Shown here: piece by piece, positions 3,001-56,062 of the stretch
Numbering within the stretch: the stretch's first letter is position 1
Layout: each line of letters opens with the position of its first letter
IMG/VR virus record: IMGVR_UViG_3300020165_000025
Location: 1 to 56,130 of that record
DNA from: a virus
Taxonomy: Duplodnaviria > Caudoviricetes
Reading direction: 5' to 3' (one strand)
DNA: 56,130 nt
Program-made: the position numbers and the translations under genes
The notes under the pieces: model-generated
The model's database searches: none
What the model was told of the DNA's origin: nothing
What the model saw: only the letters and a program-made list of their open reading frames with translations

Positions 3001-3046
3001 TAGTTATTGATGTTTCTTTTACTCTGTCGGTTAGAACCAAAGACAT
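1..3046 (-). CDS. Tail fibre-like structural protein (runs off the window edge; absent from the ORF track)
   Basis: ATG at 3046 after a purine-rich RBS. Translates MSLVLTDRVKETSITNGTGTITL... and contains LVDSAPDTLNTLNEIAAALNDD, a motif typical of phage tail fibres. No stop seen in the stretches translated. Confidence 0.75.
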   Translation of the reverse strand, partial: MSLVLTDRVKETSITNGTGTITLTGSFGGFQSFLDGIGDGNTTYYVIENESKFEVGIGTYTESDNSLSRDTVLDSSNGGAKVDLSGLSIVFCTYPASKAVFLDENDELNIPITSLAIDSLNIDGLVTADSGNLGVSGLLTLRRDSAGNFFHAYVDNGQDKTISLYHDGSISPGWKLGLKNSPDNSGDPPTYAYVYAEDGSIGLYSNSLNSINLSHGGGFNVKNKGNTILTAYSSTGVQINSFSTANSVFTVKGAVAQAAPLQEWISSSNSSLARVESDGSIVANTIQSTGDLIASGNNVLTNISNLHTSGVSISGWARYYVDSQDHTSTALSGFLEPQITQNASDILFVSGLTNASIDALPHSSGDFILTEILANSASGAANAADLLVVSGIAGGVPAASGGLITQNTNLIHSSGNFLLDEIYASGAHVSGLASTAIAAVSGYNVGYTDVQIALLVDSAPDTLNTLNEIAAALNDDASIATTLTDSINNLGIFSRVSVAGQDHIDADSNSDSLTLAEGSNITITTSASTDTITISANDSGASEEDLIYVSGIAAYASGVGTYSSGILVDGGTLIPNADKGIAIAKGSENFPVTITQDDNFSGGAYYIRLRDNDTDNITLGATDVDAFQITASGEGSSGAENIFKFSSTANDDHLVFGGSAVPTKVLGSNVTVNAEGSVELQRGGSTRVRGDSAFTYLFGQTGGYIFYGANALKPQSATSIALGGASNYWGSLHSSNANLKGSTATNIPLTIDAQAAQSANLTEWKASDDVVIAQVAPDGSIATSGDISVSGTLIAGELKSPQDTGGYLRLRGSNDTYIDVSDGTMNFYCNTGQAFRLTSSFVDVFKTLRPISNQDLGRTTNRWPNLYAVNGDFSNTVSSSGVQASGMLLYSHTPTDTSNKLYNNGGTLMFNGSAVDSGQVSGSVSGVAFFGNDGLLTDDSSFVFNSGSQELELSSISAHKTQSCDSEGTGNQFRVDLTSDNSWLNNQYANSFTSKILGDGASNQVTNIHSALEFR

Positions 3047-3069
3047 CTTTTTACCCCATTCTTACTGTA

Positions 3070-4230
3070 TTATTGTTTTTTTGTTTTGCAGCAAGGTCTT
3101 TTTGAAAGATCTTGGATTTGCTTCTCTAATTTTTTTATAGTTTCAATAAGCTCTTCGTCTCGTTGGGTTCCTGTTGGTTGAGACTGTTTTTCACTAAGGA
3201 TGTTAGACGTTTCGAGACTGATCAAATCCCAAGTTTTTGCTTCAACTTTTAATCCTTCTACAAAATGTTTTCTTAAGGGTGTTTTGTCTAACCCTAATTC
3301 TTCGAACTCTAACATGTAATTTTTTAACTTTTGATTTGTTGAGATGGGGTACTGAATCCCCTGCGGCCTGCCAAATCTATGTATCCATTTTAAGAACGGT
3401 AGGCAAACCGTCTTTCTTCCTGCCATTCTGTATTTTTCGTGGATATAACACTCTTCACCACCAAACCCTGATGCGTGACTATTGAATTTTAGCCATGAGT
3501 TTTTTCTTGTAAGAAACACGCCGAGACCTTGTGCAAAAATTTCAAACGGCTTTTCTTTTTCTTCAAACCCACTTCTGTTGTACCCCTCTTCTTTTAATCT
3601 AGATGAAACGCCGTTATAATCCCCGTGAGGAAACTCTTTGTCGCAGTATTCGCATTTTGTTATTTTCTTTGCGTCTGACAACCGCCTGAACACTACTTTG
3701 TTGTCTTCACCTTTAGTAAATGAAAAGTGAAACGAATCACATATACAATTCCAAGCCTGCCCCCATCTACCCCACATTCCTGACCCCCATTCATCATTAA
3801 AATGAGTGTATATATCTGAGAATGAGTTTAAAACCATTGGGCCGCTAAATAAATCCTCTGACTTGTCATTGTGAGTTATGAAAGTTATTAACCTATCTAA
3901 CGTTGATACCGTTGGGCATAACATAACATGACAATCCATTACTAACACATAGTTAGTCATGGCTTCTTCTATAATTTTATTCCTAGAAGGAGATGTTCCT
4001 ACCTTGTCTGAATCTATGACTTTAACTAAATTTCCTAGTCCTCTAGCGAAATTTTTCACCGCTTTTGCATGTTCGTCTTTAGGATTATTTTCTATAATCA
4101 AAAATTGAATTTGCGAGAGTAAGTCTCTTCTTCTGTTGTATATAAGCTCTTTTACAATATCTTGAATAGTAAAAAATACCCCGTCGAAGTCAGAGTAGTG
4201 AGCCATTCCTATAGTTAGTTTTTTGTCCAT
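3070..4230 (-). CDS. GT-A fold (family 2-like) glycosyltransferase
   Basis: N-terminal LTIGM..Y, IIENNP, SRNKII, VLVMDCH (DxD-like) and GFGGEE motifs. Confidence 0.75.
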   Translation of the reverse strand: MDKKLTIGMAHYSDFDGVFFTIQDIVKELIYNRRRDLLSQIQFLIIENNPKDEHAKAVKNFARGLGNLVKVIDSDKVGTSPSRNKIIEEAMTNYVLVMDCHVMLCPTVSTLDRLITFITHNDKSEDLFSGPMVLNSFSDIYTHFNDEWGSGMWGRWGQAWNCICDSFHFSFTKGEDNKVVFRRLSDAKKITKCEYCDKEFPHGDYNGVSSRLKEEGYNRSGFEEKEKPFEIFAQGLGVFLTRKNSWLKFNSHASGFGGEECYIHEKYRMAGRKTVCLPFLKWIHRFGRPQGIQYPISTNQKLKNYMLEFEELGLDKTPLRKHFVEGLKVEAKTWDLISLETSNILSEKQSQPTGTQRDEELIETIKKLEKQIQDLSKRPCCKTKKQ

Positions 4231-4262
4231 TTTTCCTCCTAGTTTCCTTGAAATATCAATTT

Positions 4263-4271
4263 ATTATACAC
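4263..4271 (-). promoter_or_regulatory. Putative late promoter GTGTATAAT
   Basis: Recurrent motif upstream of late genes, without a TTGACA. Confidence 0.6.
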
Positions 4272-4278
4272 ATTATGG

Positions 4279-6384
4279 TCAGAATCCTCCTTCTTGCGGA
4301 TCGTCCGGATTGTCATCTGGTGGCACTAAAGTGGTAACCTCTGGCTGGGTAGTGGTGGATGGAGGATCGCAGTCTCCTACGCAACTACAATCTTCACAGC
4401 TAAAAGTACAGTCAGGATTGCTTATTCCACAATCGGCAATTGGCGCATCAGGCTGGTCGCAACACTGCTGGAAATTACACGCACAGTTACCTGCGCAGCA
4501 AGGGCATGATGTGTCTGACGCTTGCGCTGTTACAGTCCAAGCGGGTGGTGCATCACAAGACCCTGTTGCATTTGGATTGTCAGCACTGTTATCCGTGTAG
4601 TCAACTTGACAGGTGTTCATGTCAAGACTCCATCTATCTGGATCATTAGCCTCTTTATCAGCGTTACACGTTACTGTTCCAGACCAAGTGTCTCCACATC
4701 CAAGGGTTCCATTTGCAGTATACGTGTGTGAGCCTGTACATTTATTGTCTCCCCCAACTCTTGTCGCTGTTGCAGAGCCTGTATCAGAATAAACGCAGTC
4801 GCCAACTATATTGACGCTGGCCGCAACTGTTATACTGTCTGGACAGCAGCAGTTTTCAGGCGGCTGTGTCGAAGTGGTTGTTGTGGGTTCGACTGTTGTA
4901 GGTTCAGCGGTTGTTGAACCTCCAGAATTTAAACATTGGCTATCAAGTGTCTGACCAAACTCCGCAGGTGTACAAGGAGTTCCAATTGTAATATCTTCGC
5001 CTCCTGATCGATATATACAATCGCACCCATTAGGGCATTGATCGCTACCAATGTTGTAGCCCCAAGATTGTCCATCGCAGTACAGCTCACACGGCGATCC
5101 GCAAGGGTCTTCAGTCGTTGTAGGCTGAACGGTGGTCGTGGGTGCATCTGGATCAACGGTGGTCGTGGGTGCATCTGGATCAACGGTGGTCGTGGGTGCA
5201 TCTGGATCAACGGTGGTCGTGGGTGCATCTGGATCAACGGTGGTTGTAGGCTCGGCAGTAGTTGTAGGCTCTTCACTCGGGTTGTAGCCTTCTGGACAGC
5301 AGCAGCAGCATCCAACAGGATCGTTGCAAAAAACCTCAACTATACTGCCATCAATCACGCTGACACATTCTAATCTTTCACCGACCGTTTGTATCATTTT
5401 ACACCCACCAACAGGTGTGCATGGCTGACCAGTAATACTATCTGTTCCGCAGTTTGAAAGTGGGCCAGTTCTGCATGATGGACAGTTGGGAGGAGATAAG
5501 GTAGTGCCCGGAGGATCTGTACTTGGAGGATCTGTGCTTGGGGAAACCGTGGTCGTTGGCGAAGACTCACAATCAACAAGATCGCAAGTTTTACCCGGAT
5601 GAAAAACTGACTCAGAATTTTGGCATAACGTTATGTCTACTTCAGAGCACACTACAGCTCCAGTTAACAGGTCGGATGTGCAACAAGCGCCTGTGCATGG
5701 ATTATTTGGAATCTCAGAACATGGGGATGATAAGCATACGCCACCTAAAAGTACGCATGTAGGGCAATCAAAATTGTCACTACAGAAACCATTGATGCAG
5801 CAACCATTGTTTGGAGGGGCAGTTGTGAACTCGTCTTGCGGGCAAAATTGACTATTGTTATTGCAATCAAAGTAAGGAAAAAAATGATCTTCCTCAAAGC
5901 AGTCGCTCGAAGCTTCACAACTTTCTTTGCTTACCGGAGATACGCAGGTGTAATATTTACCTTCAGGAGTTTGGCGGCATATGCAGCACATGCCGAGCGG
6001 ATCTGGGTCTACGGTTGTTGAGTCTGTACAGTTTTCATTACAGTCTGCATCACTAGAATACACAACGGTTACGTTAGTGGTTGTAAATCCCGCAGCTATA
6101 CAATCCTGCACCCTTTCTTGTGGATGCCCATCGTCTGGTATACAACCCAGTTTAGTTACTGTTCCTAGAAACGAGTTTCTTTCCATGCAGCAGACAGTAT
6201 CTTGCTCGTTTGGACAAGTTATCTGAGAGCAATTCTGGTTAGGGTAGAAGTTAGAACATTCTCGGGATAGACAATCTCCTGCCGCTACGTTGTTTTCGCA
6301 CTGATTTGAAGAACAACCATAACAACAAGCCCCTCTGGGTGATGGTGGAGGCGTTCCCCCTTCACATTGACAACACTGTGTCAT
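4279..6384 (-). CDS. Cys/Thr-rich 701-aa protein with mucin-like PTTT repeats, probably virion-associated
   Basis: Many CC/GACC modules and PTTTVDPDA x4; AGGAG RBS; lies in the structural operon. Confidence 0.7.
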   Translation of the reverse strand: MTQCCQCEGGTPPPSPRGACCYGCSSNQCENNVAAGDCLSRECSNFYPNQNCSQITCPNEQDTVCCMERNSFLGTVTKLGCIPDDGHPQERVQDCIAAGFTTTNVTVVYSSDADCNENCTDSTTVDPDPLGMCCICRQTPEGKYYTCVSPVSKESCEASSDCFEEDHFFPYFDCNNNSQFCPQDEFTTAPPNNGCCINGFCSDNFDCPTCVLLGGVCLSSPCSEIPNNPCTGACCTSDLLTGAVVCSEVDITLCQNSESVFHPGKTCDLVDCESSPTTTVSPSTDPPSTDPPGTTLSPPNCPSCRTGPLSNCGTDSITGQPCTPVGGCKMIQTVGERLECVSVIDGSIVEVFCNDPVGCCCCCPEGYNPSEEPTTTAEPTTTVDPDAPTTTVDPDAPTTTVDPDAPTTTVDPDAPTTTVQPTTTEDPCGSPCELYCDGQSWGYNIGSDQCPNGCDCIYRSGGEDITIGTPCTPAEFGQTLDSQCLNSGGSTTAEPTTVEPTTTTSTQPPENCCCPDSITVAASVNIVGDCVYSDTGSATATRVGGDNKCTGSHTYTANGTLGCGDTWSGTVTCNADKEANDPDRWSLDMNTCQVDYTDNSADNPNATGSCDAPPAWTVTAQASDTSCPCCAGNCACNFQQCCDQPDAPIADCGISNPDCTFSCEDCSCVGDCDPPSTTTQPEVTTLVPPDDNPDDPQEGGF
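5128..5244. repeat. Perfect 27-bp tandem repeat, about 4.3 copies, encoding PTTTVDPDA
   Basis: aacggtggtcgtgggtgcatctggatc at 5128, 5155, 5182, 5209. Confidence 0.95.
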
Positions 6385-6402
6385 TACAAACTCCTAATGT
6401 TG

Positions 6403-9042
6403 TTAAGATCCGGAACAGCTTATATAGACTGGCCTATTCTCTCCGTTGACCCTATTTGTTACTACAAAGGCAGCTCCACCGATAGCTCCCTCACCATGAA
6501 TATTTAATTTAGGATCTCTATTTGTTACCCATATCAGACTGTCGGTAGAAAATCCATTATCGTAAGTTCTTGTTCTCATTAGGCCGCTGGTTGGCGCGGT
6601 ATAGCTACTTGGGGCGTATATGTAATCAACCATAAACCCTTCGTATTGGCCGAACCAAGCTTCTGTTCCTTGCTCATCTCTTCTTATGTAGTCTCCTGAT
6701 GCTGTCGTCCTAGCGACAATCAAATCATTATCAGCCCACGTTTGAACATCTTCAGAGTCACTGTGACCATTTAGTTCTGTGTCTCTTCTTACTTCCAGCG
6801 GTGCTTGCGGAGAAAGTCTAGCGTCTCCTATTGAGATCATTCTTTTTCCGTGGTCACCAGCTATAACATTTTGTATATTAATCCTTGAGTTTAAATTACC
6901 ACTACCATAGAACAATCTTTGATTACTATCTAGCCCTGTTACAATTTCTATATTATTGTTTCCGTACAGAGAATCGTGGCCCGGTGTGTCTTCTCCATCA
7001 AGCGCGTGTTCTCCTATACCCAAGCAGTTTCTATTGCCGGAAGCATTGAGTCCTGCGCTAGAGCCAATGAATATGGAGCTAGAAGAGTTGTCTGCATTTT
7101 TACCCGCATTTGTTCCGATGAAGATTGAGTTTTCTAAAGAATCTGCGTCGTATCCTGCTCGGTAACCTATAAATACTGGGGCTGTGTCTGTTAGCAGACT
7201 TGTATTCGGAGTCGTACTGTGTGCTCCGGCTTCTTGCCCTAAGAAAACTCCGTTTTTCCATCCGGTTGCCCCTACGCCTACTCCACACCCAACAAAAACC
7301 ATTCCCGAGTTATTTATTGTATCTATGTTCATTTCGGAGGTTACATCTGCAAACAGCATGTTGCAGTTGTCAGCAACACCTGCGTAACCACTTCCAATAT
7401 AAGCAGCAAGAGAATCTACACTAATTTTACCAACAAATCTACTACTTCCCGAGGGTACTTCCAGTGGCAGGTAACTATAGGTCGTGTCTATTTGAGGTGT
7501 AAGGGAAGCTGCCATAGACAGGTCTTGATAGTCTAGCACGAAATCGGTTTGTGAAGCAGCGATTTTTTTCGCGACACCTGATGTAGCTGTTATGTTAATA
7601 TCTTGTGAAGAGCTTATAGACGTGCCGTTTGCAAACCTAATTGAGCCTAGCAGTCTAATGTCTCCACTTACAGCGATGTAGGGAGTTGAATACTGAGGTA
7701 AATTCCAGATGGGCGAAGACACGGGAATGTCACCGCTAGGAACAAAGTCTACAAGAGTTTGTTTTTGTCCAAATCTATTCTCAAACCTTAAAGATGCCAT
7801 CCCTCTATGTTGTATTGAAGAGGATTTATCTCTGAAGGTAATTTGACCAACATTGGTTGTTCCTATATCAAACGTGGCTTCTTCTGACTCTGTTAAAGCT
7901 ACGTGAAAAGAATTGTTTGCGCTGTCAACCCTTAGTTGGGCAGGGTAGTTTGCTACAGATTTTACGGCCAAGAATCTGTTAGAAGCTATTGATCCTCCGA
8001 GACCAGCTCTAATTACAGGATCATCGCCATAACCTATGAGCATACTGTAGTCATTATCTACCGCATCAGATTCGAAGTCTTTACCTATCAATACTAAGTT
8101 ATTAAATGCTTCACCCTGATGATTAGCTTCTCCTACTTCTGGCACTATAATATTTGTACCAATTATAATGGAGTTGCTAGAGTTACGGTGCGTGAGATTG
8201 TTTGCTCCAACAATCACGTTGTTGCCACCAGTTTTTAATCCGCTACCGGCACTGTATCCAACCAGAGTATTACTATCGCCTGTTGTTAAGCCCCAACCAC
8301 CAGCATAACCATATATAGTATTGTAATATAAACTTGTGTTTTCCGAGCATAACCATTCGGATAGTGGGGCAAATCTACCTGCGTATGTGTTAAATCTATT
8401 ATCTGTCTCAACAAGACCAGTCGGATGTGAAAGATTGTATTCGTTGTTAGCATCGTCCAAGAAGAAAAAACTTTGCCTTCCTTGGCAGTTATCATCTGCC
8501 TTGACATATATTTTACCAAACTCAAACGTACTTACGGGTCTTGTGGACTGCTCTTTTATTGCAATCGTTCCACTGTTGGTCGTACCCTCATGATAAATAG
8601 TTAGAGGCGAATTTGGAGTGAAAGTTCTAGATGATTTAAGCTTTGTTGTTCCTAGACCGATAAAATTATTACTGGTAACAGATAAGAATCCAGAGCCTAT
8701 GCCCTCGCAACCGCTAGGTTTTATTGTAGAAAAATCTACATAGCCAACCGCTGGAGAGTAAGACATTTCTACTCCAGAAGCTCTAGTGTTGCCATTAGCT
8801 AAAATTTGCAAAGAGCTAGTATTTACATCAACACTAGCAAACCTAACAACGGAATCCCCAGTTGTTTGAACATTGAAGATCGTTTCTGGCAGTATTGGAT
8901 GATCGTTTTCCGCTCGCTTAATATTTGTTATGCCTACTAAGCCGGATTGAGAAGCTGTAGTGAACCCATTTCTTACAACCGTCAGAGCTTCAAGCTCATG
9001 GGTTTGACCATCATGTACGTGTAGTGAAAATCTATCTTTCAT
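6403..9042 (-). CDS. Tail fibre/adhesin-like protein with beta-roll type (NxxxGxxAG) repeats
   Basis: Repeated NTIYGYAGG, NTLVGYSAG, SIFIGTNAG, SIFIGSSAG. Confidence 0.65.
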   Translation of the reverse strand: MKDRFSLHVHDGQTHELEALTVVRNGFTTASQSGLVGITNIKRAENDHPILPETIFNVQTTGDSVVRFASVDVNTSSLQILANGNTRASGVEMSYSPAVGYVDFSTIKPSGCEGIGSGFLSVTSNNFIGLGTTKLKSSRTFTPNSPLTIYHEGTTNSGTIAIKEQSTRPVSTFEFGKIYVKADDNCQGRQSFFFLDDANNEYNLSHPTGLVETDNRFNTYAGRFAPLSEWLCSENTSLYYNTIYGYAGGWGLTTGDSNTLVGYSAGSGLKTGGNNVIVGANNLTHRNSSNSIIIGTNIIVPEVGEANHQGEAFNNLVLIGKDFESDAVDNDYSMLIGYGDDPVIRAGLGGSIASNRFLAVKSVANYPAQLRVDSANNSFHVALTESEEATFDIGTTNVGQITFRDKSSSIQHRGMASLRFENRFGQKQTLVDFVPSGDIPVSSPIWNLPQYSTPYIAVSGDIRLLGSIRFANGTSISSSQDINITATSGVAKKIAASQTDFVLDYQDLSMAASLTPQIDTTYSYLPLEVPSGSSRFVGKISVDSLAAYIGSGYAGVADNCNMLFADVTSEMNIDTINNSGMVFVGCGVGVGATGWKNGVFLGQEAGAHSTTPNTSLLTDTAPVFIGYRAGYDADSLENSIFIGTNAGKNADNSSSSIFIGSSAGLNASGNRNCLGIGEHALDGEDTPGHDSLYGNNNIEIVTGLDSNQRLFYGSGNLNSRINIQNVIAGDHGKRMISIGDARLSPQAPLEVRRDTELNGHSDSEDVQTWADNDLIVARTTASGDYIRRDEQGTEAWFGQYEGFMVDYIYAPSSYTAPTSGLMRTRTYDNGFSTDSLIWVTNRDPKLNIHGEGAIGGAAFVVTNRVNGENRPVYISCSGS

Positions 9043-26757: not shown

Positions 26758-26853
26758 ATGACAGAAACAGACTTAAACGTATACATCTCACTAGCGATTG
26801 TCCTATCTGTGATTGTGGGAATTATTTCGCATTTTTTCTCAGATACCCCTTGA
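26758..26853 (+). CDS. 31-aa single-TM peptide
   Basis: GAGGA RBS; hydrophobic VYISLAIVLSVIVGII. Confidence 0.55.
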   Translation: MTETDLNVYISLAIVLSVIVGIISHFFSDTP

Positions 26854-26905
26854 CAAATTAAGATTTTATGGTATAATTAAATATATGAAAAAGAAAGATA
26901 ACAAC

Positions 26906-27397
26906 ATGAAAAAAGCCTTTGTATTTGATTTTGATGATACCCTTGCGACTACTGATTGCATGGTTTTGGTTCGAAATATCGACGGTAAACACGTCCGCAA
27001 ACTAACACCGGCAGAGTTTAACATCTACACACTGCCACCCTTCTGCCGATATGATTTTAGCGAGTTCCGATCCGCTGAGTTTATCCACAATGCAAACCCA
27101 ACAAAGTTAATTGATTTTGCGAAAGAAGTACACGATGAAGGCCACAGTGTTTATGTTCTTACCGCTCGCACTGATAACGTAGCCGATGCAATATTTGATT
27201 GGCTTTGCGGTTTTGAGATTCAGCCTATTCGCGTTTACGGTGTTGGTTCCGATGATAAAAAAGTTGACATTGCAGAAGAAAAGCAGAACGTTTTGAGAAC
27301 CTTGAATCAGGTTTTCGATGTTGTCTATTTCTACGATGACGATCAACACAATATTGATATGGCCGATCAAGTCGGCGTTAAAACTTATTTGATTTAA
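26906..27397 (+). CDS. HAD-superfamily phosphatase
   Basis: FDFDDTL, LTAR, K and FYDDD motifs. Confidence 0.85.
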   Translation: MKKAFVFDFDDTLATTDCMVLVRNIDGKHVRKLTPAEFNIYTLPPFCRYDFSEFRSAEFIHNANPTKLIDFAKEVHDEGHSVYVLTARTDNVADAIFDWLCGFEIQPIRVYGVGSDDKKVDIAEEKQNVLRTLNQVFDVVYFYDDDQHNIDMADQVGVKTYLI

Positions 27398-27926: not shown

Positions 27927-28247
27927 ATGTATATGAGCAAAGTTTCTTATTTAGCTGCGTTATATCGGCCACGAACTCACTCGTTCGCCGTTCACGAATT
28001 TCCGGCAGGCGAATCGTTTGATTTTAATTTAGAGTCGCACGTTTTTATGGCTAATGATAAAGTTATGAAATTGGGCGGTGGATTTTTGCCACTTGGTTAT
28101 GCAACCATTGAATATTTAGACCAAGCAGAAAAAGATCAAGCGTTCCATAAATTTTTTGAGGACACCGTTAAAAAGATCAATGAAGCGCGGCCGATTCCAC
28201 CTTGTGACGTTTCCACGTTCGAGCCACCAAATGAAGAATGGAGCTAA
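27927..28247 (+). CDS. Early hypothetical protein
   Basis: GGAGG RBS. Confidence 0.7.
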   Translation: MYMSKVSYLAALYRPRTHSFAVHEFPAGESFDFNLESHVFMANDKVMKLGGGFLPLGYATIEYLDQAEKDQAFHKFFEDTVKKINEARPIPPCDVSTFEPPNEEWS

Positions 28248-28257
28248 TACAAATATC

Positions 28258-28362
28258 ATGAAAAAAATTAAATACGAAGAATCGCAACCTAATGCAGTGT
28301 TGTTATGTACACTAGCGTTTATTGCCGGAACTTTATTGCAAGCCGCTCTGTGTCTTTTCTAA
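28258..28362 (+). CDS. Small TM peptide
   Basis: GGAG upstream; hydrophobic C-terminus. Confidence 0.45.
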   Translation: MKKIKYEESQPNAVLLCTLAFIAGTLLQAALCLF

Positions 28363-28387
28363 CCTTTGCGGATAGAGCTAAAAGATC

Positions 28388-28473
28388 GACGTAAACCCTT
28401 GGGGCGTAAGGACTTAGGGCGGCGGGGGCTGCCGGCGGCCGACGTAAACCCTTATATACCAACGACTTACGTC
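28388..28473. repeat. Paired palindromic element (53-bp period)
   Basis: Spacers ggggcgt and atatacc. Confidence 0.9.
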
Positions 28474-28500
28474 AATCTTGAAAAACTTTAAAATTTCTTT

Positions 28501-28662
28501 TTTAGGTGGACACCCGAGAAACGGGAAAAGGCTTCCCCAGCAACCATATTACACGGTAAAAACCGAGGTGAAAAAAACCTTTCCCCAGCGACCCAAAATC
28601 GAGCTAAGTCCTTGCCACATAACGAGTTATGGCTTCAATTTGACCTCTCCGGTATAATAAGG
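28501..28662 (+). repeat. ~160-bp composite promoter-like repeat, copy 2
   Basis: Same block order and length as copy 1. Confidence 0.85.
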
Positions 28663-28817
28663 TGTAAGAAGAAAAAAACTCTTCTTCCCAGCCGACCGGC
28701 GAAAGCTAACAGGTGTCGGCAAAATGTTCTTTGAAAATTTGGTTTTTTTTCTGATTTTGTTCAAGATACCCCTTGACAAATGACGATAAATAGTATATAA
28801 TGATAACATGTTCAGAA

Positions 28818-28945
28818 GGATACGTGAGTCTGGAGGCGACTTAACGACGATCAACCTCAATCGGTGCGGCGTATCTGGATGTAAAAGAGATTGTGAACTC
28901 TTAAACACCACAGGGCAGAAGTGGAACTGCCATATCAAAAGCCAC
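28818..28945 (+). ncRNA. Structured leader or sRNA: three-way junction with kissing loops plus two H-type pseudoknots
   Basis: Starts after promoter 28773; GGATACGT/GCGTATCT closing stem; loops GAGG and CCTC. Confidence 0.55.
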
Positions 28946-28954
28946 GGGACAATC

Positions 28955-29182
28955 ATGAGTTTTGATGTGCCTGTAGCACCAAAATTCGACACATGTTTTG
29001 CAATCAATTGCAGAATGTGCAACTCTCAAAATTTTGTGCGAGTTGTCGAAAGTGATTTCGACGCTTGGCGAAATGGCGAGTTTATCCAAAACGCTTTGCC
29101 GTATTTGGACGCAAATCAACGCGAGTTATTAATGACTCAGATTTGCGGCACTTGCTTTGATGCACTCCCTTTTGGGGAATAG
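28955..29182 (+). CDS. Small CxxC..CxxC protein
   Basis: CRMC...W..G.FIQ.ALPYL...QRE.L....CGTC. Confidence 0.7.
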   Translation: MSFDVPVAPKFDTCFAINCRMCNSQNFVRVVESDFDAWRNGEFIQNALPYLDANQRELLMTQICGTCFDALPFGE

Positions 29183-29315
29183 TCGAATTTGCTACCGTTT
29201 GGGGATAACCCTGTGAAGTCTAACCAGCTTTGTCGTTAACCACTCAATTGGTGAGTCGATTAGAGATAGTCGCATTTAATAACTTGGCGAAGTATAAACG
29301 CCAACAATTCAATAC

Positions 29316-29488
29316 GCCCCTATAGTTTAACGGTAAAACATTGTTAACCGACTAAGTGAGTTTGATCGCTCACGATTCTACAACCAGAGCGATGGACGCA
29401 TTAGCTGGGTTGCATTGGCTTGATCACCGATGACACGAATCAGGTTGGATACTTAACAAAGATCGTGGTTCGAATCCACTATGGGGCA
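29316..29488 (+). ncRNA. tRNA-like RNA with a 105-nt structured insertion in the anticodon arm
   Basis: GCCCC/GGGGC acceptor, D arm GTTT-AACGGTA-AAAC, TTGTTAA/TTAACAA stem, T arm GTGG-TTCGAAT-CCAC. Confidence 0.7.
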
Positions 29489-29499
29489 GCACATTCTGA

Positions 29500-29650
29500 T
29501 AACGGGGCGTCATAGCCGAGAGGCAAGACCAATCACGCCCACAAGCCCGCAAGGGTGGAGAGAAGTAGGGTTGGCAAATACAAGGGCTTGACCCGAAAGC
29601 ACCGCCTAAGTCGCGGCCATAGCTGGCGAGCTATTCAAGATACGCCAACA
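29500..29650 (+). ncRNA. Putative structured RNA
   Basis: GGGCGT/ACGCCC stem; GNRA hairpins GCC-GAGA-GGC and CCC-GCAA-GGG; no ORF. Confidence 0.45.
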
Positions 29651-29654
29651 CAAT

Positions 29655-29739
29655 GACGTAAGTCCTTACAGGGTAAGGGTTTAGGTCTCCGGGGGCGGCA
29701 AAAATCGTCGTAACTCCTTATGCCCCAACGACTTACGTC
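29655..29739. repeat. Paired palindromic element (52-bp period)
   Basis: Spacers acagggt and atgcccc. Confidence 0.9.
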
Positions 29740-29782
29740 AATTTAAAATATCCTGTTTTTCTGCTTTTTATTTCTTTCCCCA

Positions 29783-29936
29783 GACACCTAGTAAATGTGA
29801 AAAGGCTTCCCCATCGGCATTTTACCCCGCTTTTTACCGAGTCAAAAAAACCTTTCCCTAGTTGCTCAAAATCGAGCTAAGTCATTGGGATATATAGACT
29901 TACGGCGACGACTTGACCGCTCCGGTATAATTAAGT
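29783..29936 (+). repeat. ~160-bp composite promoter-like repeat, copy 3
   Basis: GACAC-to-TATAAT distance 143 bp, as in copy 1. Confidence 0.85.
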
Positions 29937-30055
29937 AAAAGAAGAAAAGAAAGACAAAAAGAAAGATCAAAAAAATCTGAAAAAAAATCTTCAAAGTGAC
30001 CAAAGGTGTCACATGGATAGACGATAATATATATATAAGAAAGAAAGAAAGAATT

Positions 30056-30148
30056 ATGACTCAAAACAATGAAACAGACTGGCAAGGAATGGCAACTTTT
30101 CTCGAATGGCTTTTATCAGAAAAATCTGAAAAAGAATCGGAAAAATGA
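30056..30148 (+). CDS. 30-aa peptide
   Basis: Between two GTGAC-class promoters; purine-rich leader. Confidence 0.45.
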   Translation: MTQNNETDWQGMATFLEWLLSEKSEKESEK

Positions 30149-30211
30149 CCTAACGTGTCACTAGGTTATGCTATAATATAGTATAAGAAAAAACAACAGA
30201 AAGAAAGAATT

Positions 30212-30457
30212 ATGAATCACATCACTAGACAAATTTTAGACAACAACCTACCAATCTCGGACGTTACGAGAACGGTTACCATAACGGGTACAGAACTGGA
30301 CAATCCAGTTTATAAATGGTTCAACAAAGACACCAAAAAATGGTACTTTGGGGACAAGTGGAGCCAAAAGTGCAATTTCTCACCAAACTCAGCGATTAAT
30401 TGCGGTGGAAAGTATTATATCAATAAAATTTTCCTAAATCACAAAATCACGACCTAA
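30212..30457 (+). CDS. Early hypothetical protein
   Basis: Own promoter. Confidence 0.7.
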   Translation: MNHITRQILDNNLPISDVTRTVTITGTELDNPVYKWFNKDTKKWYFGDKWSQKCNFSPNSAINCGGKYYINKIFLNHKITT

Positions 30458-30601
30458 CGTGTCACTACACTGTGCTATAATACAGTATAACAAAAAAAGA
30501 GAAGCGGAACTGCTATAACAACCGCACTTGCAAGAGGAAGCAAGTAAAAAAATCCTCGGAACACTTACTATTTATTCCGATCTTGAAAGGATCAAAAAAT
30601 T

Positions 30602-30826
30602 ATGTTTCAACACAAACTACAAACCAAAACCGATTCCATGCGATTGTTTCGCACTACTGCCGACCTATTAAAATGGTCGCAAGATAATCCAGACGTTAAG
30701 ATTGTCAAAGGCAATCACGATGCCAGAACTGGCACGACTACTTGGAACGTCCCACAATGGGACAAGGTTCGAGCAGATTACTGCTCTGCTAAATTGGCTA
30801 CCATCAAGCGTTATGGTTCTAATTAA
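30602..30826 (+). CDS. Early hypothetical protein
   Basis: AAAGGA RBS in the GATC hairpin. Confidence 0.7.
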   Translation: MFQHKLQTKTDSMRLFRTTADLLKWSQDNPDVKIVKGNHDARTGTTTWNVPQWDKVRADYCSAKLATIKRYGSN

Positions 30827-30829
30827 CGC

Positions 30830-30975
30830 TCGCAACTGCAACACGATTGCAGGTAACAATTCAACTTCATCTAATGCCGAGATGACCGATAGGGTGGCGA
30901 GATAGTTCGCCTTAAAATGCCAACGCGGTAACAAGACCGGCTCTCCACGCTCGGGAGAGGTAAAAACAGAGCCAG
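30830..30975 (+). ncRNA. Putative structured RNA ending in an H-type pseudoknot
   Basis: Hairpins CTGCAA/TTGCAG, TCATCT/AGATGA, GGCGA/TCGCC, CTCTCC/GGAGAG. Confidence 0.5.
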
Positions 30976-30981
30976 AACATT

Positions 30982-31064
30982 GACGTAAGTGCTTGGCATT
31001 AAAGGACTTACGACGGCGGCGGCAGCCCCCAGCGACCTAAGTCCTTATATAGCAATGACTTAGA
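30982..31064. repeat. Paired palindromic element (52-bp period)
   Basis: Spacers ggcatta and atatagc. Confidence 0.9.
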
Positions 31065-34060: not shown

Positions 34061-34211
34061 CTAGGGGTGCTTGCATGATACCTATGGAAATGTGGGTGGG
34101 TAATTGACATAAGTCACCACCTAATAAGGTGCAAGATTCGCTTGCTGGGATACCACTCGCGGAAGTTTGGGCAGTCGTGTATTCGAAATCGTTCGATTCC
34201 CACACTCCTAG
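34061..34211 (+). ncRNA. Putative ~150-nt structured RNA
   Basis: Closing stem CTAGGGGTG/CACTCCTAG, inner CTTGCA/TGCAAG, GTTCGATTC motif, T tract after. Confidence 0.55.
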
Positions 34212-34232: not shown

Positions 34233-34304
34233 TGTGTGGTAGCTCAGTGGTAGAGCGATGGACTGTTAATCCATTGGTCGCAGGTTCGAATCCTGCCCGC
34301 ACAG
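34233..34304 (+). tRNA. tRNA-Asn(GTT)
   Basis: Complete cloverleaf; ATGGA-CT-GTT-AA-TCCAT. Confidence 0.95.
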
Positions 34305-34308
34305 CTTT

Positions 34309-42048: not shown

Positions 42049-44169
42049 ATGAAAATGCAGCAAGAGTCACAGAACGTAGTAGTAAACGGATCATTCGAAA
42101 CCAGTGAATTTGCTACTGGTGATATTTCTTTTCTTGTAGATATGATGTCTGATTATATCTACACCAATAAAGAGCGAGCGATTTTGCGTGAGATTAGCGT
42201 AAACGGTCACGATGCTCAAGTGCGGGCAGGAACCGAGCATATTCCAATCGAGGTGCGTATTCCTACTGTGCTAGACAATACGGTATCCTTCCGAGACTCT
42301 GGTGCTGGACTGTCTGACGCTGGTATTCGAGGTACGTTTTGCGGCATCGGAATCAGCGATAAGCGTGACTCTGACACAGAAACAGGTTGTTTTGGTGTAG
42401 GTACTTTGTCTCCATACTCATTGTGTGATAGTTTTAGTGTAACAAGTTATCACGGCGATACTGTGATCGACTACCTATGTTACCGTGACGAGAGTAGACG
42501 ACCTCAAGTATCCGAGCTAACTCGTAGAGAGCGTAACAAGGACGACCATGATGACCGGACTGGACTGCTCATCAGTATGACCGTGAAGGACAAGGTTAAA
42601 GAGTTTCGCAAGGAAGCTGCCCATGTTTACAAGCATTGGCGAGGTACGACTGTAGACCTTTCTGCACAAAATGTTCTAGAGGACATAGAGGCGGCTAACA
42701 AGAAAATCATTATCGAGAACGACGACTGTATGATCTCTAGCAGTGGCGATTCCGATGATTTTATGTCAGCGTTCCAAGGTAACATCTGTTACGAGATTCC
42801 AAGTTTCGACTGGAGCAGTGTAGGTGAAGATTTACCTGTAACCGCATACCAGTGTGAACGGTTCCTACGTTGTTTTGGTCTGTTAAAGTTTTGTGTCAAA
42901 GAGGATGCGTTGTCATTCGATGTTTCTCGCGAAAAGTTAGAGAACAAGCCAGAAAACATGCTCAAGATCAAAAAGAAGATGGCAAAAGTTATTGCACAGT
43001 TGAACAAGAACGTCATTAAATTGATCGAAGAAGGTGAGACTCCGCTTGATCGTGCGAAAAAGGCTTGGAATTTAGGTTGTGGGGAACTTGGTAGAATTGT
43101 CAAGCAGGACAAGGAAATGGATGCTGTCCTACGCAAATACGAGTTAAAAACCGAGGAACCTCATACCGTGTGGAGTTCTCGTTATCGAGGTAGCGACAAG
43201 TCTGAAAGAACAACGGTTGAGTTGGAAGGGGGACGGGTCAAAGTAAAATACGCATTGGCAAAACCTCGTATGACAACAAGGATCAAGAATTACCTAAAGG
43301 ATAAACGTACTGGTGAATCCATTGTTATTTTTAATGATAAAGAGCAACAGCAACAAGCACAGATTCCCGACTCAGAATTGTTTGACCTTGAAGATTTGCC
43401 AAAGGTTGTTCGCAGTTCAAGCCGTGGAATATCATCGTCAGGCAATGTTTACAGTACCTACAAGACGTTCGAGGTTGATAAGACGCAAACTGGTTGGAAT
43501 GAAAAGAACTACTTTAAGGAATGTGAATTGTCAGTCGAGGAAGGCAGTACCGAACCTATTTATTATGTTGAGATCAATCGTTACGAAATAGTGCGTCAGG
43601 TCTATGGGGACGGGAGGAACGATGCACAGGTGCTTGGTAAAATTTTGCGTCAAGCAGAATCACAAGGATACGATGTTCCAAAGGTTTACGCTCTTAAAAG
43701 TTCGTTTCTTAATTCTAGAAAGTTTAAGAAGCATAAATTTGTGCCGCTTACTGAGTGGATCAAGAATGTTGTACTGCCTGATCTACCAGAATCAAAACGA
43801 TTGCCATGCGAATATCACGATCAGGACATCAAACAATTGTTATCATGCGTAAAACATGAAGGGATTGAACAGTTTGCTAGAGAGTTTTGGGTCAAACTAG
43901 GTTCAGCTTTACACTTCCATGTTCAAGTATGGTTAGGTGGAACCAACATGGGTGATAAAGTGTTGCTGACAGCGAGCGACTCGGATACACACTGGGACAA
44001 GGCGACAAGTATGTATGGACTTCTAGAGTGTATTTCGTGTTACAACTTTAACAATAATAAGGGCGAGTTAGCTAAATACTTAGGAGGAACTGTTATCGAG
44101 GACGAGACTAAGTTATCATGGACTGCTCGCAAGAAAGAAATTATCAAAAATGTTAAAGTTACCGCTTGA
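42049..44169 (+). CDS. rIIA: rIIA-like protein (N-terminal GHKL ATPase)
   Basis: IY.NK.RA.LRE...N..DA, RD.G.GLS, G.FGVG, SRE.L; rIIB-like gene nearby. Confidence 0.8.
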   Translation: MKMQQESQNVVVNGSFETSEFATGDISFLVDMMSDYIYTNKERAILREISVNGHDAQVRAGTEHIPIEVRIPTVLDNTVSFRDSGAGLSDAGIRGTFCGIGISDKRDSDTETGCFGVGTLSPYSLCDSFSVTSYHGDTVIDYLCYRDESRRPQVSELTRRERNKDDHDDRTGLLISMTVKDKVKEFRKEAAHVYKHWRGTTVDLSAQNVLEDIEAANKKIIIENDDCMISSSGDSDDFMSAFQGNICYEIPSFDWSSVGEDLPVTAYQCERFLRCFGLLKFCVKEDALSFDVSREKLENKPENMLKIKKKMAKVIAQLNKNVIKLIEEGETPLDRAKKAWNLGCGELGRIVKQDKEMDAVLRKYELKTEEPHTVWSSRYRGSDKSERTTVELEGGRVKVKYALAKPRMTTRIKNYLKDKRTGESIVIFNDKEQQQQAQIPDSELFDLEDLPKVVRSSSRGISSSGNVYSTYKTFEVDKTQTGWNEKNYFKECELSVEEGSTEPIYYVEINRYEIVRQVYGDGRNDAQVLGKILRQAESQGYDVPKVYALKSSFLNSRKFKKHKFVPLTEWIKNVVLPDLPESKRLPCEYHDQDIKQLLSCVKHEGIEQFAREFWVKLGSALHFHVQVWLGGTNMGDKVLLTASDSDTHWDKATSMYGLLECISCYNFNNNKGELAKYLGGTVIEDETKLSWTARKKEIIKNVKVTA

Positions 44170-47158: not shown

Positions 47159-48319
47159 ATGAGTACAGCATTTGCACTAGCACCACTTTACAAAATGGAC
47201 AGCAAGGGTAAGATTCGCGTGTTAAACGTGTATCATGGCAGCGACGAGCGTGGATGGTTCTACGAGCAGGAACACGGCCTGTATGGTGGCAAGCTACAGC
47301 ACAGTCGCACCTATGTAGAAGGCAAGAACGCAGGACGAGCAAACGCTACGACCGACGAGCAGCAGGCAGAGAAAGAGGCAGAGGCTAAGTGGAAGCAGAA
47401 GCGTGACCGTAGTGGTTACTCTGAAACAATCCCTACAGACAAGCCTATGATGCCCATGCTCGCACAGTCGCACGACAAACATAGCCACAAGATAGCTTAC
47501 CCTGCGTACATCCAGCCCAAGCTAGACGGTATTCGTTGCTTCATTCATGTAGATGGCGAGAACGTCAAGCTAGTAAGTCGTACCGGCAAAGAGTTTACAT
47601 CTCTTGGTCACATTGCCGATGCGATCAGCGAGTTGGTGTCTGTGATGGGCAAGGACACAAGCGGGTTTTCACCATCTGCTAGATCATTTATTCTTGATGG
47701 AGAGTTATACAACCATCAGTTTAAAGAGGACTTTCAAGGTCTTGTGTCAGCGATCAAACGTGACAAGCCAAGTGAGAACACTCATCTAGTACAGTTTCAC
47801 TGTTATGATTATGTAGCAGAGGATAGAGACTTTGAGGATCGTATTCACGAACTCTATCACATGGATCAGTGGTGGCAAGAGGGAGACTGTATTCATATCG
47901 TACCAACTTTTCCTGTCGATAACTTAGATGAAGTAGTCGAGCAGAACTCTTTGTGGCTAGAAGATGGTTATGAGGGCAGCATGATCCGTAACGCCAAGGG
48001 TGGATACCAACCCAATCGTCGATCTCCTGACTTACAGAAGTACAAGTCTTTTCTTGACGCAGAGTTCGAGATCGTGGGAGCGTATGAGAATAAGGGCAAG
48101 ATGGAGGGTCAGTGTACCTTCACTTGTGTGACAGAGGATGGTACAGAGTTTGGTGTCAAGCCAATGGGTGATGAGTCTCAACGTGAGCAATACTGGATTG
48201 ACTTTCAAGCAGGAAAACTTACTGGTAAAATGTTAACAGTAAAATTCTTTGAGTGGACGACCAGTGAAAACCCTGTGCCAAGGTTCCCCGTTGGAGTTTG
48301 TGTTAGAGATTACGAATAA
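47159..48319 (+). CDS. lig: ATP-dependent DNA ligase
   Basis: PMLA, QPKLDGIR, LDGELY, EGSMIR, K.K and PRFP motifs. Confidence 0.92.
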   Translation: MSTAFALAPLYKMDSKGKIRVLNVYHGSDERGWFYEQEHGLYGGKLQHSRTYVEGKNAGRANATTDEQQAEKEAEAKWKQKRDRSGYSETIPTDKPMMPMLAQSHDKHSHKIAYPAYIQPKLDGIRCFIHVDGENVKLVSRTGKEFTSLGHIADAISELVSVMGKDTSGFSPSARSFILDGELYNHQFKEDFQGLVSAIKRDKPSENTHLVQFHCYDYVAEDRDFEDRIHELYHMDQWWQEGDCIHIVPTFPVDNLDEVVEQNSLWLEDGYEGSMIRNAKGGYQPNRRSPDLQKYKSFLDAEFEIVGAYENKGKMEGQCTFTCVTEDGTEFGVKPMGDESQREQYWIDFQAGKLTGKMLTVKFFEWTTSENPVPRFPVGVCVRDYE

Positions 48320-55482: not shown

Positions 55483-55553
55483 GCCACTATAGTTAAACGG
55501 TATAACTGCTGATTTCCAATCAGCTATTCGGGGTTCGATTCCTCGTAGTGGCT
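55483..55553 (+). tRNA. tRNA-Gly(TCC)
   Basis: Full cloverleaf; GCTGA-TT-TCC-AA-TCAGC; U73. Confidence 0.92.
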
Positions 55554-55556
55554 CTT

Positions 55557-55630
55557 GGCTCTGTAGCATAATTGGTTAATGCACTGGACTGTCGATCCAG
55601 CGATTGCCGGTTCGAGTCCGGTCAGAGTCG
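55557..55630 (+). tRNA. tRNA-Asp(GTC)
   Basis: Full cloverleaf; CTGGA-CT-GTC-GA-TCCAG; G73. Confidence 0.92.
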
Positions 55631-55639
55631 CTCCCTTCG

Positions 55640-56062
55640 GGGATGGAGTACGGCAAGTGCTATGATTGTAGACGTTGTTATGGGAGATTATTAGGGACGG
55701 GAGGGGCAGTTCCTCCCCGCCTCCACCAGAAGCACACCACAGTGTGTAAACCGAAAGACTGATTTCGTGGGCGTTTCGGGGTATCGGACTATGAACCGAG
55801 TTAGCCATGCACGTATTGCCTAATCTTAGGAAACGTGAGAGTCTAATAGCTGGTAAAAATCCAGAAAGTCGCAGCGAGATATTATGGTGTGTTTCTGACG
55901 GGGGCGAAATAGATTCGACCTGTAATAAGAAGTAACAATTGCAATCCGTAGTTGACAGAAGGGCTACGTTAAAAATCTGTTAAATGTTAATTGCAGAACC
56001 TAGTTTCGCAATGGCAGCGTAAGCTGTCCGAGGTTCCTATACCTTGTCACCCAACATAGGCA
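55640..56062 (+). ncRNA. ssrA: Circularly permuted (two-piece) tmRNA, tag (A)AEPSFAMAA; outer ends approximate
   Basis: Acceptor end CGCCTCCACCA (55718-55728) lies upstream of the 5' end GGGGGCGAAATAGATTCGAC (55900); G3.U pair; tag ORF 55993-56022. Confidence 0.88.

Follow-up and report, generated by a model that had tools for sequence, protein, structure and literature searches.

The stretch of DNA considered here, called the window, is the 56,130-nucleotide (nt) tailed-phage record IMGVR_UViG_3300020165_000025 of IMG/VR. At positions 29316-29488 of its plus strand lies a sequence shaped like a transfer RNA (tRNA), with acceptor, D and T arms, in which the place of the usual 7-nt anticodon loop is taken by 109 nt between the two strands of the anticodon stem. 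The question raised by this locus is whether it is an ordinary tRNA gene interrupted by an intron, the remains of a tRNA gene in decay, or the gene for an RNA that uses the shape of a tRNA and does something else. Our data suggests the last of these: we put the odds somewhat above even (roughly 55%) that the locus encodes a stable RNA that has the frame of a tRNA and does not decode.

Architecture of the RNA

An original prediction, made from the letters of this DNA, described recognizable D and T arms and a GCCCC/GGGGC acceptor, and all of these were located where it had placed them. Against the Rfam tRNA model (RF00005) the sequence scores 31.0 bits (E 2.3e-4; gathering cut-off 29), the alignment carrying an insertion of 111 nt in the anticodon loop; its acceptor, D and T arms thus stand above the cut-off, and all four helices of the class I tRNA cloverleaf are supported by covariation among the homologues described below. 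ARAGORN in its default mode and a fast-filtered Rfam scan of the whole window at the gathering threshold both miss 29316-29488. The elements of the RNA are as follows, the pairing percentages and the two-sided changes being those counted over 12 homologous sequences.

29316-29488, plus strand: the whole tRNA-shaped RNA, 173 nt; its final base is the discriminator A, and CCA is not encoded
29316-29322, plus strand: acceptor 5' strand GCCCCUA, which pairs with 29480-29487 (UA-U-GGGGC, bulged U); helix 1, 95.2% of cells paired
29325-29339, plus strand: D arm, stem GUUU/AAAC, loop AACGGUA with the elbow GG; helix 2, 100% paired, 3 of 4 pairs with two-sided change
29341-29345, plus strand: anticodon-stem 5' strand UUGUU, partner AACAA at 29455-29459; helix 3, 5 of 5 pairs with two-sided change
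29346-29454, plus strand: the 109-nt module, made of P2, hairpin A, P3, the variable hairpin P4 and hairpin B, with two three-way junctions
29348-29353, plus strand: P2 5' strand CCGACU, partner GGUUGG at 29443-29448; helix 4, 98.6% paired, 3 of 6 pairs with two-sided change, many G-U
29356-29373, plus strand: hairpin A, stem GUGAG/CUCAC, loop UUUGAUCG at 29361-29368; helix 5, 100% paired, 3 of 5 pairs with two-sided change
29374-29378, plus strand: P3 5' strand GAUUC, partner GAAUC at 29437-29441; helix 6, 100% paired, 3 of 5 pairs with two-sided change
29381-29412, plus strand: variable hairpin P4, of which the family has three or more unrelated versions; read from the alignment, treated as unpaired in the model and kept out of the counts
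29413-29432, plus strand: hairpin B, stem CAUUGG/CCGAUG, loop CUUGAUCA at 29419-29426; helix 7, 98.6% paired, 4 of 6 pairs with two-sided change
29465-29479, plus strand: T arm, stem GUGG/CCAC, T loop UUCGAAU; helix 8, 100% paired, 2 of 4 pairs with two-sided change

The frame varies in detail among the homologues, some of which are given here by locus number. The acceptor is a perfect, bulge-free stem of 7 base pairs (bp) in L035 and L057, the D stem reads GCGU/ACGC in L035 and GAGG/UCUC in L057, and the anticodon stem appears as UAAUC/GAUUA, UCGCG/CGCGA, CUAUU/AAUAG and in other forms. The T stem has just four clean pairs (49:65 is C/U), the variable loop has five bases, and the discriminator is either A or U. 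The GG and UUCGA loops that form the elbow are kept in 11 of the 12 homologues, L057 being the one that has neither the GG nor the UUCG signature. The lengthening of the anticodon stem to TTGTTAA/TTAACAA, which had also been described, is seen in the window; its two additional pairs are found in only 5 of 11 distinct homologues and are not conserved. The two hairpins GTGAG/CTCAC and CATTGG/CCGATG are real, and their loops can indeed form six pairs with each other. The whole RNA folds with a z of -3.52, and none of 200 shuffles folded equally well; the module folded alone gives -33.8 kcal/mol and a z of -3.17, with its best structure making up 51% of the ensemble and 0 of 200 shuffles as good.

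Conservation of structure in homologues

Homologues were collected with an upstream 20-mer (29283-29302) as the bait, which is matched exactly in 2 viral and 21 metagenome loci. These 23 loci comprise 16 full-length copies, four copies cut by a contig end and three loci in which another tRNA-like RNA occupies this position, and a divergent member (L057) was recovered via a different bait from the neighboring domain. In a related record (G001) the 5' part of the RNA is present and the contig ends within the insert. Once identical copies were collapsed, 12 distinct homologues remained from marine metagenome and viral contigs, with their length held at 173-177 nt. A covariance model (R1), built from a MAFFT alignment and the proposed structure, scored the target at 197 bits over the window and showed no second full-length copy there, the canonical tRNAs at 55483-55553 and 55557-55630 reaching only 38.3 and 34.2 bits.

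Every helix of the RNA shows compensatory changes among the 12 sequences. Over the eight helices 98.6% of the 504 cells pair and 24 of the 42 pairs change on both sides (98.9% and 20 of 42 with 11 sequences). None of 500 shuffles in the control reached any of the five covariation measures, and when the partners were slid by 1-3 columns pairing came to 31-45%, with 1-6 two-sided pairs. G-U pairs occupy 47 of the 504 cells, and since these would be A-C mismatches on the other strand, the plus strand is the strand that folds. Decay in relatives, the mark of a pseudogene that had been named as a possible refutation, was not found; what the relatives show is compensatory change. The RNA is a selected structure, and decay is excluded.

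There is no Rfam 15 family for this RNA, and we found no description of it in the literature, though PMC10690425 lists 10,006 candidate phage RNAs and it may be one of them. A pattern for its 3' part had zero matches in 185,579 prokaryote genomes. Two other baits were rejected: the D arm combined with the T arm led to 15 viral loci (L001-L015), all of them two adjacent ordinary tRNAs, and the exact 18-mer of hairpin A led to four viral loci in unrelated coding sequence. The tRNAs of those 15 loci are marine phage tRNAs that share the D arm of the target, have the anticodon loop CUUAUAC or UUUAUAU (anticodon UAU) and encode CCA; their variable region is odd, structured and about 22 nt long, a long variable arm being unusual for an isoleucine-type anticodon.

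Intron, tmRNA and other RNA classes

Three features elsewhere in the window bear on whether the RNA could be spliced or could act on the ribosome in the manner of a transfer-messenger RNA (tmRNA); the open reading frame (ORF) and the ligase gene lie on the plus strand.

26813-27397, plus strand: polynucleotide kinase/phosphatase-like ORF (phrog_415, 5.7e-18)
47159-48319, plus strand: ATP-dependent ligase, adjoining tRNA-Met and tRNA-Arg
55664-56022: permuted two-piece tmRNA, 89.3 bits

An unusual intron was among the explanations originally offered, and the insert does lie exactly between the strands of the anticodon stem. We considered every 7-nt loop that can be obtained by removing an internal piece between these strands, eight registers in each of 11 homologues, and in none of the 88 does the loop have both U33 and a purine at position 37; the earlier statement that no canonical U33 anticodon loop is evident thus holds in every register. 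ARAGORN with introns allowed, which had been proposed as a check, yields no consistent spliced tRNA: 4 of 24 sequences are called at the default threshold, and the relaxed calls across the homologues are Ser(act), Val(cac), Gly(acc), His(atg), Arg(ccg), Leu(gag), Ile(aat) and Ile(gat), so that the anticodon differs in nearly every relative and none is common to the homologues, and the intron positions also differ between close homologues. Group I introns have a lower size limit of about 200 nt, and the insert of 109 nt is far under it. A search of 29000-29900 against Rfam with E up to 10 gave no match to a group I or group II intron, a self-cleaving ribozyme, a tmRNA or a Y RNA. The archaeal bulge-helix-bulge has two 3-nt bulges with a 4-bp helix between them at the exon-intron borders; by inspection there is none at the end of the stem, where a strand of 1-2 nt faces one of 5-7 nt (2 and 6 nt in the window) and the helix beyond is 6 bp long (5 in L035). 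Contigs of two RNA-library runs span 28991-29620 with no joint across 29346-29454, a weak argument in that contigs drop rare forms and the libraries may hold DNA, and in run X19 only two short pieces matched. A tRNA whose intron is removed by an unfamiliar route, for example cut and resealed by kinase/phosphatase-like and ligase-like enzymes, would find candidates for both activities in this phage, and tRNAs with conserved introns have been reported from Lak megaphages (PMC6784885). With no known intron type, no usable register and no shared anticodon, we consider such a tRNA very unlikely.

Equally slight, in our view, is the chance that the RNA is a ribosome ligand of the tmRNA kind, which would be aminoacylated and enter the ribosome with the module in place of its anticodon arm. 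The RNA has an intact acceptor, T arm and elbow, its anticodon arm gives way to a large domain as in tmRNA, and the phage carries a permuted tmRNA of its own (55664-56022), so ribosome rescue evidently matters to it. Against this, 29316-29488 has no tmRNA model match and no ARAGORN tmRNA call, although these tools do pick up the genuine tmRNA; all 12 sequences have C-G at pair 3:70 and not the alanine-identity G3-U70 needed for alanine charging; the discriminator varies between A and U, a bulged acceptor U is unusual for a charged tRNA, and a conserved reading frame is absent.

The RNA likewise has no match to the Rfam YrlA family, its ends forming an acceptor stem, or to the ROOL, GOLLD and pRNA families of Rfam. 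The decoy for anticodon nucleases that had been suggested is not favored, as nothing in the RNA resembles a 7-nt anticodon loop and both hairpin loops are of 8 nt. What stands from the original prediction is its general proposal of a functional RNA in a tRNA frame, as opposed to an ordinary tRNA, which agrees with the covariation in all helices and with the absence of a usable anticodon loop in all 88 registers.

The nearly invariant loops and a proposed mechanism

Whereas the stems of hairpins A and B and of P2 and P3 vary freely, the two 8-nt loops are almost fixed. Loop A (UUUGAUCG) is identical in 9 of the 12 variants, loop B (CUUGAUCA) keeps its core UUGAUC in 11 of 12, UUGA is present in 23 of the 24 loops, and in L057 every stem has changed and both loops are unchanged. 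A GAUC palindrome occurs in both loops, and the UGAUCA of loop B is a perfect 6-nt palindrome. Loops A and B are pairable in 69 of 72 cells, and the predicted loop duplexes have energies of -5.1 (A-B), -4.8 (A-A) and -5.4 kcal/mol (B-B), values matched by only 98 of 5000 random loop pairs.

We propose that the RNA would be transcribed from one or more upstream promoters and excised like a tRNA, with RNase P cutting at G1, 3' trimming and the addition of CCA by host enzymes; the phage tRNA-Asn (34233-34305) likewise encodes no CCA. The tRNA body would give the RNA stability and protection, as in engineered tRNA scaffolds, and the RNA would never be spliced and never read a codon, its working part being the pair of loops that rigid stems would present to a partner. 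As to the partner, our leading guess, which we rank first among the mechanisms at odds of roughly one in four, is that copies of the RNA dock with one another through their loops; each molecule would then be bivalent, and copies would be joined hand in hand into dimers, rings or larger assemblies. A bolder version, which we hold to be doubtful, is a self-assembling block in which palindromic loops at a fixed geometry (two three-way junctions) close rings or cages with the tRNA bodies facing outward; if true, this would be a small RNA-only assembly, a miniature ROOL/GOLLD or pRNA ring, that shows many tRNA elbows or acceptor ends to host enzymes or ribosomes.

Several points weigh against this account, some touching the covariation and others the docking. 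The alignments used for counting (A4 and A5) were fitted to the model structure and are biased towards it, with the plain MAFFT alignment (A2) giving almost the same result, and the 12 sequences come from related phages, the independent events being fewer than the cells. In the two runs labeled as RNA, coverage over the entire 6 kb is about as even as in the DNA run from that study, and DNA carry-over is possible. Covariation between the loops is zero, and the three departures (two in L044 and one in L040) are uncompensated. The duplex reaches only -1.9 kcal/mol in L044 and -2.5 in L035, so that 2 of the 12 variants are clearly weakened, which speaks against a kiss that the RNA could not do without. 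Because both loops share a palindromic motif their mutual complementarity is automatic and adds little, and the near-constancy of the loops is accounted for equally well by a ligand common to both, whether protein or RNA. The earlier suggestion of a multimerizing RNA with kissing loops is thus possible, borne out as to the pairing that the loops allow and left without covariation; the data back two copies of a recognized motif more firmly than a kiss.

A reading of the loops in terms of DNA methylation or restriction was dropped, GATC being neither avoided nor enriched in the window (196 against 205 expected). GAUCACC and GGUUGGAU may resemble the 3' end of 16S ribosomal RNA, with which the complementarity would be 5 nt.

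The RNA island around the locus

The RNA lies within an island of structured modules, and the notable elements of its surroundings and of related contigs are the following.

28773-28801, plus strand: perfect sigma-70 consensus TTGACA-17-TATAAT (12 of 12 matches, a consensus match only), ahead of the ORF at 28808-29182
28808-29182, plus strand: Cys-rich 124-aa ORF directly 5' of the RNA, no Pfam match, phrog_20898 only
29283-29302, plus strand: conserved 20-mer CTTGGCGAAGTATAAACGCC, a hairpin with TATAAA, 13 nt 5' of the RNA, once in the window
29494-29574, plus strand: conserved pseudoknotted domain that begins 5 nt past the RNA, no Rfam match
29581-29653, plus strand: 73-nt module AAGGGCTTGACCCGAAAGC...CTAAGTCGCGG..ATAGCTGGCGAGCTATTCAAGATACGC, which recurs in many related contigs, with at least two copies in L029
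24804-24818, 25876-25890, 30579-30593 and 37697-37711, plus strand: hairpin GATC-TTGAAAG-GATC in 5' untranslated regions (UTRs)
34061-34211, plus strand: second tRNA-framed RNA, with acceptor-like ends, a T loop and a core of about 130 nt, 5' of tRNA-Asn (34233-34305)
L038 3550-3700, also L043 and L048, and L045 and L055 (minus strand): third tRNA-framed RNA, cargo GCCGGACGCUAC...UAAUCCUUUAGCGGGGAUUGACCUAACAG...

Judged by its sequence, the promoter at 28773-28801 could drive read-through into the RNA, and the 20-mer may be a promoter or a processing signal. The Cys-rich ORF stands in the same arrangement in most of the related loci and is absent upstream of L057. For the downstream ORF, a search for a relative gave none. 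In the domain at 29494-29574, 100% of 147 cells are paired and two-sided change is seen in 7 of 21 pairs, owing largely to one divergent lineage. It has the helices UUCU/AGAA and GGGCG/CGCCC, two hairpins capped by GNRA loops (GAGA, and GCAA that becomes GAAA in relatives) and a pseudoknot CCAAUC/GGGUUGG, which is CUAACA/UGUUAG in L029, and it may be a separate module that is freed by tRNA-type processing. One hairpin of the 73-nt module at 29581-29653 covaries by eye (CCGC/GCGG becoming UAGC/GCUA), and this module may be an RNA element or a promoter-like signal. A 17-mer from a neighboring module gave at least 120 scattered matches in unrelated taxa, with about 70 expected by chance in 596 Gb, and these were treated as chance.

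The UTR hairpin, cGAUC-UUGAAAG-GAUCaa, stands 4-6 nt before the ATG of four early genes and overlaps their AAGGA ribosome-binding site; many related phage contigs have it, and the L057 record does not. In that record (positions 1-8728) many genes appear to be leaderless, with TTGACA-17-TATAAT ending 4-6 nt before the ATG. The second tRNA-framed RNA is homologous to the module that follows the target RNA in L030, L040 and L044, and its copy in the window, to judge from the missing 5' strand of the T stem (TGGG), may be decaying. The third occupies, in L038-type phages, the exact place that the target has in the window, and the acceptor and T stems of its two versions differ by compensatory changes.

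Alternative roles for the module

If copies of the RNA do not dock with one another, the loops would most plausibly be twin sites for a single protein or host RNA that recognizes UUGA(UC), making the RNA a handle or sponge whose frame serves processing and stability. We rank this tentative explanation close behind docking and hold it to be nearly as likely. It fits the near-invariance of the loops while all stems vary, even in L057, the UUGA of 23 of the 24 loops, and the weakness of the kissing pairing in L044 and L035. Similar loops also occur nearby, GGG-CUUGA-CCC at 29584-29594 and GGGG-AUUGA-CC in the second tRNA-like family, and if the explanation is right these other yUUGA loops of the same non-coding island would bind the partner too; their recurrence was, however, judged by eye. 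No family of RNA-binding proteins was recognized among about 40 ORFs scanned, and the Cys-rich ORF at 28808-29182, although syntenic in many loci, is absent upstream of L057. A partner of another sort would be the messenger RNAs (mRNAs) of the phage itself, with the loops pairing with the GAUC arms of the UTR hairpin over the Shine-Dalgarno sequence of several early genes. The motif is present four times in the window (24804, 25876, 30579 and 37697) and repeated in related contigs, the GAUCG of the loop is complementary to cGAUC and UUGAUC to GAUCaa, and a target in many copies would account for loops that do not change. However, the complementarity is only 5-6 nt, the L038-type phages carry the motif together with another tRNA-like RNA, and the 19-kb L057 record, whose loops are identical, has zero copies of it at up to one mismatch, its genes being leaderless or using ACGAAAGRR without GAUC arms. 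Such a regulator of mRNAs seems improbable to us.

Only marginally better placed, and improbable as well, is the idea that the tRNA shape acts as processing punctuation, letting RNase P and the 3' enzymes free the flanking RNAs (for example 29494-29574) with the insert as a passenger. The position of the RNA within an island of structured modules, the pseudoknot domain that starts 5 nt past the discriminator in eight aligned loci, and the interleaving of other tRNA-like modules with structured modules in relatives are all in its favor. In a passenger, however, one would not see four helices maintained through compensatory change, two loops held fixed and a length that stays constant, and different modules follow the RNA in L035 and L040.

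Genome context and distribution

The window covers all, or a large portion, of the genome of a tailed phage. Up to about 24 kb its minus strand carries structural and packaging genes (large terminase, head protease, tail fibres), and from about 24.8 kb the plus strand carries short early-type ORFs with strong sigma-70-like promoters. It has five ordinary tRNAs (ARAGORN default), encodes UvdE and ThyX, and has a RIIA-like ORF at 42049-44169. The kinase/phosphatase-like ORF (26813-27397) and the ligase (47159-48319) could together form a tRNA repair kit. The sigma-70 promoters, the AAGGA ribosome-binding site and the tmRNA make the context bacterial. Neither blastn of 28000-31000 nor tblastn of a 672-aa structural ORF matched a cultured phage, and the large terminase is only about 25% identical to those of Bacillus and Microcystis phages, so that no cultured relative can be named and no host assigned. 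The stretch around the tRNA-shaped RNA is present in runs from 15 studies, almost all of them labeled marine, which indicates that the family is environmentally common.

Relation to known RNAs and significance

The nearest documented RNA is RNA1 of phage T5 (NC_005859 30501-30644), annotated as 'tRNA-like stable RNA with unknown functions', which scores 24 bits against the Rfam tRNA model with 47 nt inserted at the anticodon loop. Like the target it is the RNA of a phage tRNA island and has acceptor, D and T arms with an extended structured region at the anticodon loop; unlike the target it has a long variable arm, its insert is shorter and simpler, UUGAUC loops are absent, and it falls below the Rfam cut-off. 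The model R1 does not recognize it (a fragment of only 3.7 bits), hence the likeness is one of layout, not of descent. The target shares with it a tRNA-like body, an enlarged anticodon region and a place in a phage island, features that define the class by layout and not by homology. Phage T4 has two stable RNAs, species 1 and 2 (rnaC and rnaD), which lie in the tRNA cluster and are processed like tRNAs, and we know of no tRNA-shaped stable RNA of T5 or T4 to which a function has been given. The RNA described here is a new family within this known but unexplained class of phage tRNA-like stable RNAs.

Other systems resemble it in part. In tmRNA a tRNA-like module of acceptor and T arm is also joined to a large domain in the place of the anticodon arm, but the target is much smaller, has a full D stem and lacks both G3-U70 and a tag reading frame. 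The tRNA scaffolds engineered to express recombinant RNA in Escherichia coli carry their cargo in the place of the anticodon loop, with the tRNA body providing processing and nuclease resistance; the architecture is the same, but they are man-made, whereas the target is natural and kept by selection. The ring of the phi29 pRNA is built through two complementary loops, and the YrlA RNA has a closed acceptor and its ends at the side of the anticodon stem, while in the target the ends form the acceptor. YrlA-type bacterial Y RNAs are described as non-coding tRNA mimics that also occur in phages (PMC4201824); no Ro60-like family was seen among the roughly 40 window ORFs scanned. The Lak megaphages have conserved 'introns' of unknown type in their tRNA genes (Devoto et al. 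2019, PMC6784885), and as that report presents them the type and anticodon of the tRNA can be assigned once the insert is removed, whereas no register gives one in the target. The phage RNAs GOLLD and ROOL, which occur close to tRNA islands, assemble into RNA-only multimeric cages in the account given in 10.1101/2024.12.08.627333; the target is similarly located, but they are not tRNA-framed, and multimerization of the target is a prediction.

The family offers a comparative handle on an old phage puzzle, as it combines a complete and selected tRNA frame, no possible anticodon, cargo helices that covary and two fixed loops, and the covarying helices together with the fixed loops point to the nucleotides worth mutating. 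The same islands of related marine phages contain two or more further RNAs on a tRNA frame, whose cargoes are different, which suggests that a tRNA body plus an exchangeable module is a general route by which phages make stable RNAs, as in the engineered scaffolds.

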